Shown piece after piece: positions 8,937-9,914 of a DNA stretch of 11,246 nt. Where the stretch lies: positions 1 through 11,246 of the forward strand of contig JAEOSZ010000072.1 in the NCBI GenBank assembly GCA_016840095.1. The letters are read 5' to 3'. Under the pieces are notes generated by a model that saw only the letters and a program-made list of their open reading frames with translations, made no database searches and was not told where the DNA came from. A program made the position numbers and the translations under genes. Position 1 is the stretch's first letter, and the number at the start of each line of letters is the position of its first letter. Source of the stretch: Candidatus Heimdallarchaeota archaeon (GTDB lineage: Archaea; Asgardarchaeota; Heimdallarchaeia; Heimdallarchaeales; Heimdallarchaeaceae).

Positions 8937-9914
8937 ATGAATGGGAATAGTGTTCATACCTTTGTCTCAACTGTGGAACTTGTAGGTCTTATAGGCAAGT
9001 CTAATTATAGATTATTAGATTTACGTACATATTCCAAGTATGTTAGAGCCCACATATCAGGGTCTATACATATAGACAACAATATCTTCGTTGAACAAAA
9101 TGAAGATGGTATAAATGTTATTCCTAATTGCGAAAGAATTTCTAGTTATCTTGCGAGTAAAGGCATAAATTCTAATGATACTCTAATTTTAGTTGATGAT
9201 GTTTTCAATTTGAATTGTTCTTTAGCAGCCTGGACTCTTCACTATTTTGGTTTCAAGAATGTAGTTTTAGTAGATGGAGCTTTTTCAAAATGGGAAACTG
9301 AAAAAGGAGATTTAAAATCTATCAAAGTTGAAACTAACACAGATACTTATCTGCCTAAATGCCCAGAATGTGATTCTTTAAATCTTAAATTGGATTCAGC
9401 TCAAGGAGATTTTCTCTGCATAAATTGCGAGTCTATAGTAGGGGACTCTTATATCGATCAATCAGGGAAATGGAGTATTTATCTGAAAGAACAGCAAAGA
9501 AACCAAACAGAAAGAGGTAATTTTTCCTTAAATCAGCTAGATGATTCCATACTAATTTCTAAGGATGAGATAATGATGTACCTCAATTCCGATGAATTCA
9601 TTTTTGTTGATAATCGTTCAGAGTATGCAATGCTTTTAGATCAACAAGGAGGAAATATCCCTAGAGCTGTACATCTCTGGTATTTAGATCTTTTTGAAGA
9701 ACACCCTGATTATTTCATTGTTAAAAAAGCTGATGAGTTAACCGAAGAACTTGAAATAAGAGGAATAGCAAAAGACAAAACCATCATCGTCTACTGTGAA
9801 TCTGCACCTCAATCAGCTTTAGTTTATTTAGTTTTAAAAGAACTAGAATATCCTGATGTAAGATTATACTTAGCCGGATATGATGAGTGGAGACTAAATT
9901 GTGGTTTTCTCTGA
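8937..9914 (+). CDS. Tandem-domain rhodanese/sulfurtransferase with an inserted TFB/TFIIB-like zinc ribbon module
   Basis: N-domain has LLDLR...Y..AHISGS, GINSNDTLILVD, WTLHYFGFKNVVLVDGAFSKW. C-domain has FVDNR, GNIPRA, GIAKDKTIIVYC (active-site Cys287) and VRLYLAGYDEW. The linker contains CPEC-x15-CINC...ID....W. Confidence 0.9.
   Translation: MNGNSVHTFVSTVELVGLIGKSNYRLLDLRTYSKYVRAHISGSIHIDNNIFVEQNEDGINVIPNCERISSYLASKGINSNDTLILVDDVFNLNCSLAAWTLHYFGFKNVVLVDGAFSKWETEKGDLKSIKVETNTDTYLPKCPECDSLNLKLDSAQGDFLCINCESIVGDSYIDQSGKWSIYLKEQQRNQTERGNFSLNQLDDSILISKDEIMMYLNSDEFIFVDNRSEYAMLLDQQGGNIPRAVHLWYLDLFEEHPDYFIVKKADELTEELEIRGIAKDKTIIVYCESAPQSALVYLVLKELEYPDVRLYLAGYDEWRLNCGFL

Follow-up and report, generated by a model that had tools for sequence, protein, structure and literature searches.

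The window, by which we mean the whole 11,246-nt stretch of DNA analyzed here, is contig C55 of a Candidatus Heimdallarchaeota bin of 3.44 Mb (89% complete, 7.8% contamination). Its related loci belong to Heimdallarchaeota bins and to Ca. Heimdallarchaeum of the same family, which places the organism in Heimdallarchaeaceae. The source sequencing runs are marine sediment metagenomes, and no RNA run is listed among those containing the region. Positions 8937–9914 of the forward strand carry an open frame (P0001) for a two-domain rhodanese with an internal TFB-derived module, which is the sole copy of this rhodanese found in the bin and the single syntenic orthologue of the family gene. It lies between a deoxyhypusine synthase gene (dhys) and a convergent methyltransferase gene, an order that is kept in nearly all relatives with enough flanking sequence. 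The features are as follows:

7922–8887, forward: deoxyhypusine synthase gene (dhys), the conserved upstream neighbour, which fixes the orthology; context only
8937–9914, forward: fusion ORF P0001, 325 aa, a two-domain rhodanese with an internal TFB-derived module
8937–9314, forward: N-terminal rhodanese domain and first part of the linker, aa 1–126 (PF00581 at aa 14–121, orthologue alignment, breakpoint profile)
9315–9503, forward: captured tfb 5′ fragment, aa 127 to ~189, a gap-free match to the paralogue; right edge uncertain by ~3 codons
9357–9473, forward: TFIIB-type zinc ribbon with Cys142, Cys145, Cys161 and Cys164 (codons at 9360, 9369, 9417 and 9426; PF08271)
9456–9503, forward: eroded B-reader remnant, with W179 and Y182 kept, K178 for E and S180 for R, and no B-linker
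9504–9914, forward: return to the rhodanese linker, then the C-terminal catalytic domain, aa 190–325 (orthologue alignment, breakpoint profile)
9795–9812, forward: active-site loop, Cys287 followed by ESAPQ, a family-wide state
9929–11245, reverse: Eco57I/TaqI-like methyltransferase, the conserved convergent neighbour on the downstream side, truncated where the contig ends; context only

In nearly all of the family members examined, dhys and the rhodanese gene (7922–9914 in the window) lie side by side and point the same way. Just 5′ of dhys lies a small Cys-rich, zinc-ribbon-like ORF (7612–7908); elsewhere in the window, another small Cys-rich ORF (1551–1832) resembles a B-box/FYVE-like finger (PF22586, E 2e-4, below the cut-off), and positions 4561–5967 encode a likely secreted or membrane-anchored protein with Ig-domain and exonuclease/endonuclease/phosphatase regions.

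P0001 carries two PF00581 domains with PF08271 between them at aa 141–179 (E 5e-9, 36 bits; gathering score 29), which bears out the proposal of the initial annotation that a TFB-type module sits in frame between two rhodanese domains. The segment is TFB-derived rather than a generic ribbon, as was also claimed: the NCBIfam TFB model PRK00423 matches aa 134–196 (profile 8–70, E 1.8e-7), with a score of 30.5 bits that is below the full-TFB cut-off of 384, while the best other ribbon reaches only 14 bits on the full protein. The best PDB sequence matches of the insert are the N-termini of TFB/TFIIB (1pft, E 9.5e-5). The cysteines have the spacing CxxC-x15-CxxC, in an internal position unlike the N-terminal ribbon of TFB, and the gap-free alignment does run past the ribbon into the B-reader, where it includes W179 and Y182. 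The cyclin-fold core is absent from P0001, as first noted, with no match to the cyclin repeats (PF00382) that the donor tfb has.

Outside the insert, the rhodanese part remains constrained (dN/dS ~0.13 against orthologues), and relative-rate tests show no significant acceleration (chi-square at most 1.5). An AF2 model of P0001, computed with no alignment depth over the insert, has a mean pLDDT of 88.6, both rhodanese domains being mostly above 90 and the insert at 54–72, and its best Foldseek match is RhdA (1e0c, TM(target) 0.81), with TST and human MPST also matched. At least 90% of 75 homologues share Asp87 in the N-domain and Cys287 in the C-domain, and the N-terminal domain is probably non-catalytic, with Asp87 where active domains have Cys. 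The active loop has an exact 8-residue motif that is common to 43 of 58 homologues; CESAPQ is family-wide and therefore not special to the fusion gene, and it departs from the canonical Cx4R/T active-site loop (PMC10135228). The NF008557 score of 66.5 is below the cut-off of 250. The 267-aa Heimdallarchaeaceae family also keeps Cys94 and a C-terminal Cys.

About 60 homologues without the insert were found in the protein collection, 31 family genomes, JGI metagenomes and GTDB. The full-length orthologues have 262–278 aa, except for one 306-aa frame that is extended upstream, and show a 58-residue gap against P0001. In the Asgard genome search, 67 of 301 genomes match and only the source genome gives a split match; a second carrier was found neither in 300 Asgard genomes nor in the protein collections searched. 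Searches with the insert region returned only P0001 among proteins of 178–569 aa, nothing among those of 30–177 aa and nothing among viral contigs, and an exact 26-mer of the insert had no match in JGI metagenomes. The best 150 matches in a 50%-cluster search are rhodaneses with no single stretch across the insert, the ESM Atlas gave plain rhodaneses only, below 0.8, and a longer rhodanese in one genome (G186) has no Cys insert. Judged by tfb, the closest genome is G007 (86% complete); neither the rhodanese nor dhys was found in it with these queries, and it is therefore of no use for dating the insertion. A rhodanese with a TFB ribbon was not found in the literature search either, so that the architecture of rhodanese, TFIIB ribbon and rhodanese is, as first supposed, undescribed in the databases and literature searched. 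Within the gene family, P0059 (L036:35–586; coverage ~2) and P0060, on contigs of ~1 kb, each join half a rhodanese to unrelated sequence and are probably chimeric.

The initial annotation had asked that the junctions be bridged by reads. Run X2 (sample S2) comes from the study that also produced the possible source run, from a different sample, and a separately assembled Logan contig of it (depth 4.8) spans 8708–9449, bridging the left junction (9315) with more than 130 nt on each side and covering all four Cys codons. It differs from the window at 23 positions, at least 17 of them before 8884, and is nearly unchanged across the left junction. The contigs from about two thirds of the data of runs X1–X3 leave the right junction (9450–9600) uncovered, and run X4, from a second study, covers 9615–9859 only. 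The left junction is thus bridged, while the contigs seen stop short of the right one. It could be argued that an assembly chimera joined the rhodanese to the divergent tfb of an unrelated organism, as the fusion is a singleton, the bin has the contamination given above and low-coverage chimeras (P0059, P0060) are known in the same gene family. However, the separately assembled contig crosses the left junction and the four Cys codons, and 97% and 95% of sampled 31-mers of 8700–10200 are present in two samples of one study. Moreover, at both of its ends the insert meets the same orthologous gene without a shift of frame or register, no repeat joins the ends, and the insert is just 62% identical to the bin's own tfb and lacks motifs that every working TFB has. 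A chimera is, in our judgement, very improbable. In the 3′ end of dhys (8713–8883), a contig of run X2 differs from the window at ~20 sites while the rhodanese is nearly identical, which looks like a recombined population patch.

Boundaries and donor of the insert

Codon-wise profile scores place ~63 tfb codons (9315 to ~9503) in the position of ~5 linker codons, for a net gain of 58. The left break lies between L126 and K127 (9315), corresponding to tfb codon 4, and the right break lies between Q187 and Q190 (~9495–9503). The span first assigned to the module, 9345–9518, overlaps the insert, but it begins 30 nt inside the insert, and the five residues at its end belong to the rhodanese. These residues, Q190–G194, fit the rhodanese linker better than TFB, and the terminal G, which had been read as a TFB feature, is among them, the fragment ending earlier.

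The insert corresponds to residues 4 to ~66 of the tfb paralogue at G000:C49:52895, G000 being the source bin, with 29 of 63 aa (46%) and 117 of 189 nt (62%) identical and no gaps; a nucleotide search also matches it to this paralogue, at 64% identity over 155 nt. The bin holds three TFB genes that score with PF08271 and a fourth, divergent TFB-like gene. A comparison with the genome's own tfb paralogues, as was initially suggested, gives the C49 paralogue as the best match, the insert scoring 63 bits against its group and 42, 26, 17 and 16 against the others. In a tree of 54 columns, which leaves the exact placement unsure, the insert falls inside the genus clade of the C49 paralogue on a branch of 1.65, compared with 0–0.12 for the genus orthologues. 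The donor group and the in-register breakpoints found by profile scores and tree thus support one of the two readings offered at the outset, that of a captured tfb fragment. The likeness to eukaryotic TFIIB that had been noted in GD and VGD is no sign of kinship. The donor lineage reads RGE and VED, so the likeness arose after capture and is convergent, and a eukaryotic TFIIB origin of the insert is rejected by its nesting in the genus tfb clade.

Other kinds of insertion were also considered. An intein, IS or mobile insertion was rejected, with no Hint or transposase family in P0001, and so was an archaeal intron (the RNA folding z is 0.44, and the centroid leaves the ends unpaired). No terminal repeats or target duplication were found at the insert ends, and no repeat is present at both ends. 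The fourth TFB-like paralogue of the genus (L177–L180, L194, L196; G000:C43:18446–19558 in the source bin) has an eroded B-reader, and the two members scanned have no PF00382 match at E 0.01.

Structure, residues and selection

In the AF2 model of the full protein, the insert is a lower-confidence excursion with a β-hairpin at aa 150–161 (pLDDT 60–80). When it is folded with TFB rows, the ribbon reaches pLDDT 68–82 and again shows a hairpin, and its top Foldseek match is 1pft, at an E of 0.12 that is below significance. The linker of two-domain sulfurtransferases wraps both domains (PMC10135228). A compact ribbon could loop out of such a linker, while threading of the tail into the polymerase would probably need the linker to detach.

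Judged on 24 aligned true TFBs, the insert keeps 11 of 16 pan-TFB invariant residues (the four Cys, P, S, D, G, I, D and W) and 18 of 47 other positions. The run D170–S176, W179 and Y182 are kept exactly. The five changed invariants are R156Q and E158D, which remove the R and E of RGE, G165E, which removes the G after the second Cys pair, and E178K and R180S, by which the EWR of the B-reader becomes K178-W179-S180. The R-x-G cluster and the B-linker are absent, since the fragment ends at ~aa 189 and aa 190–194 fit the rhodanese profile. Of the alanine substitutions in M. jannaschii TFB, those at E78, W79, F82, R92, V93 and G94 cut polymerase recruitment most (PMC3025549). Going by the spacing of the motifs, E78, W79 and F82 correspond to K, W and Y in the fusion, and R92, V93 and G94 were not captured.

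The insert differs from the bin's own tfb at 17, 16 and 39 of 63 first, second and third codon positions (pN 0.29, pS 0.70, pairwise omega ~0.18), a pattern that was never reached in simulated neutral decay that avoided stops only. Because a distant donor could inflate third positions, a second test was conditioned on amino-acid identity alone, with three alternative donors. At matched identity, the retention of all four Cys has a neutral P of 0.02–0.04, the conservative nature of the replacements has a P of 0.003–0.013, and the joint neutral P is ~3e-4, and at most 6e-4 with any of these donors. The insert was therefore under protein-level purifying selection after it left TFB function, which also argues that it is translated. 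This selection may predate the capture, and with no second carrier it cannot be placed before or after it. Occurrence in a single genome without Cys conservation or RNA polymerase binding had initially been named as evidence against the module; the insert does occur in a single genome, but compared with the donor it has kept its cysteines to a degree that neutral decay would not lead one to expect. Synonymous differences between the insert and the bin's own tfb amount to 18 of 28 codons, while 10.6 are expected from the nearest insert-less orthologue (P 0.004). This excess allows for an older or foreign donor, or for insert-less alleles having replaced the insert in sister lineages.

Competing explanations

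Taken together, these observations are probably best explained by a lineage-specific domain capture, although our preference is a measured one. As the sequence shows, illegitimate recombination brought ~63 codons from the beginning of a genus-type tfb paralogue into the linker between the domains, in frame and in exchange for ~5 codons. The two rhodanese domains are predicted to pack as usual, and the insert is predicted, at moderate confidence, to form a compact Cys4 zinc ribbon that loops out of the linker and carries a loose tail derived from the B-reader. The product would be an ordinary enzyme, predicted to transfer persulfide through Cys287, in which the folded zinc module is a passenger or has a stabilizing effect and plays no part in transcription. 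Selection presumably keeps the zinc ligands and the ribbon core so that the insert folds and the enzyme is undisturbed, while the residues for transcription initiation decay, a pattern that is seen in the alignment and whose cause we infer. Two points weigh against so simple a reading: selection to fold cannot be told apart from selection to bind something, and the conservation of D170–S176, W179 and Y182 is more than the four ligands need. An alternative possibility is that the fragment diverged under selection in another TFB-derived gene, such as a lost duplicate, a mobile-element gene or the DNA of a relative, and was inserted recently, being nearly neutral in the rhodanese and maybe strain-specific. 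The synonymous divergence, which exceeds that of the split from insert-less orthologues (P 0.004 vs. L068; 0.02 vs. L083/L088), would be explained in this way, as would the singleton distribution; fast-evolving TFB-ribbon genes exist in the genus, and a contig of run X2 suggests recombination next door. Yet no already-diverged donor of this kind was found among proteins of 30–569 aa, viral contigs or 83 Heimdallarchaeia genomes, the tfb leader is retained from codon 4 onward, as direct capture predicts, and the synonymous test is informed by just 28 codons. A recent insertion is unlikely, though slightly less so than the two readings that follow.

The other reading offered initially was that the protein docks on RNA polymerase or competes with TFB. 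In this scenario, the ribbon pairs with the Rpo1N dock and tethers the sulfurtransferase there or displaces TFB, linking persulfide status to transcription. The zinc ribbon is the part of TFB that binds the polymerase dock domain (PMC7289017, PMC3025549), so the ribbon by itself may dock; the preference for pan-TFB invariants (11/16 vs. 18/47) points the same way, human TFIIB likewise has GD in place of RGE, and non-canonical ribbon carriers such as TFB3 do act on transcription (PMC6101594). With 5 of 16 invariants changed and the R-x-G cluster uncaptured, the claim is nevertheless not supported so far. The change E178K reverses the charge at a site critical for recruitment, R180 has not been kept (M. 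jannaschii numbering mapped by motif spacing), and both ends of the module are tied to the linker that wraps the two domains (PMC10135228), which makes threading of a B-reader into the polymerase unlikely. Furthermore, a TFB3 construct with the ribbon only did not activate transcription (PMC6101594), and the insert branch of 1.65 against 0–0.12 is unlike that of an interface with a dock region that is 95–100% identical in the family. A co-fold of insert aa 135–187 (no alignment) with the Rpo1N dock region and Zn gave a score of 0.00 with a poorly folded partner and carries no weight either way. We consider docking rather improbable. Zinc-thiolate sites are sensitive to persulfide, and the four cysteines are kept beyond neutral expectation in a persulfide-forming enzyme. 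The module could serve in redox or sulfur relay, its Cys taking persulfide from Cys287 or sensing oxidation or metal and releasing zinc to tune the enzyme, or the ribbon could be an internal sulfur acceptor or an Fe carrier. Folding explains the Cys retention equally well, however, all orthologues work without the module, and the geometry between the ribbon and Cys287 is unreadable from the model; a relay is about as improbable as docking.

TFB ribbons outside TFB

The fusion protein shares with two-domain TST/MST enzymes (RhdA 1e0c, bovine rhodanese, human MPST 4jgt) the two PF00581 domains, the N-domain Asp, the C-domain Cys and the predicted fold, and differs from them in the net 58-residue TFB-derived module in its linker and in a CESAPQ loop that is of neither TST nor MST type. 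Its nearest kin, the 267-aa Heimdallarchaeaceae family (P0002, P0003; 78–80% identical), has the same gene order with dhys, to which P0001 adds the module. With archaeal TFB/TFIIB (PF08271 and two PF00382) the insert has in common the N-terminal leader, the Cys4 ribbon with its 15-residue spacing, ID and W, while P0001 has neither cyclin repeats nor B-linker, its RGE, CG and EWR are eroded, and the module is internal to an enzyme. A TFB ribbon outside canonical TFB is also found in TFB3 of Sulfolobales, a truncated TFB paralogue (PMC6101594). That protein is a conserved, free-standing activator dependent on its coiled coil, whereas the ribbon of P0001, a singleton, sits inside another protein and lacks a TFB core.

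Relatives in the genus encode proteins of 55–184 aa that end in a TFB-type ribbon, with no B-reader or core and in variable gene surroundings, which are possible TFB mimics:

L181:1300–1617, L182:1105–1656, L183:1087–1617: small ribbon-ending proteins
L184:1474–1809, L195:1489–1653, L198:1498–1782: small ribbon-ending proteins

No description of these proteins was found, nor was a full-length homologue in the source bin. They share with the fusion a secondary reuse of the TFB ribbon in a non-TFB protein of the same genus, and they differ from it in that they stand apart from the donor paralogue (closest to the C134 type), have a C-terminal ribbon and are not fused to an enzyme. Since TFB ribbons have been put to new use independently in these small variable proteins, such captures recur in the genus; it is the architecture, and not the process of capture, that is unique among the databases and literature searched.

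The weight of the finding is limited by its being a singleton with eroded polymerase-recruitment motifs, and it would reveal a new regulatory mechanism only if polymerase binding were true. In that case, a sulfurtransferase that competes with TFB or gives persulfide to polymerase thiols would form a direct link between sulfur metabolism and basal transcription in an Asgard archaeon. The locus offers a clean, traceable case of a metabolic enzyme acquiring a domain of a basal transcription factor, and because the donor paralogue, the breakpoints and the insert-less ancestor state are known, it tells the TFB residues with a role in folding apart from those with a role at the polymerase. Heimdallarchaeia are the Asgard group generally placed closest to eukaryotes, and the fusion, along with the other reuses in the genus, points to the TFB ribbon as a module that is shuffled repeatedly in this lineage.
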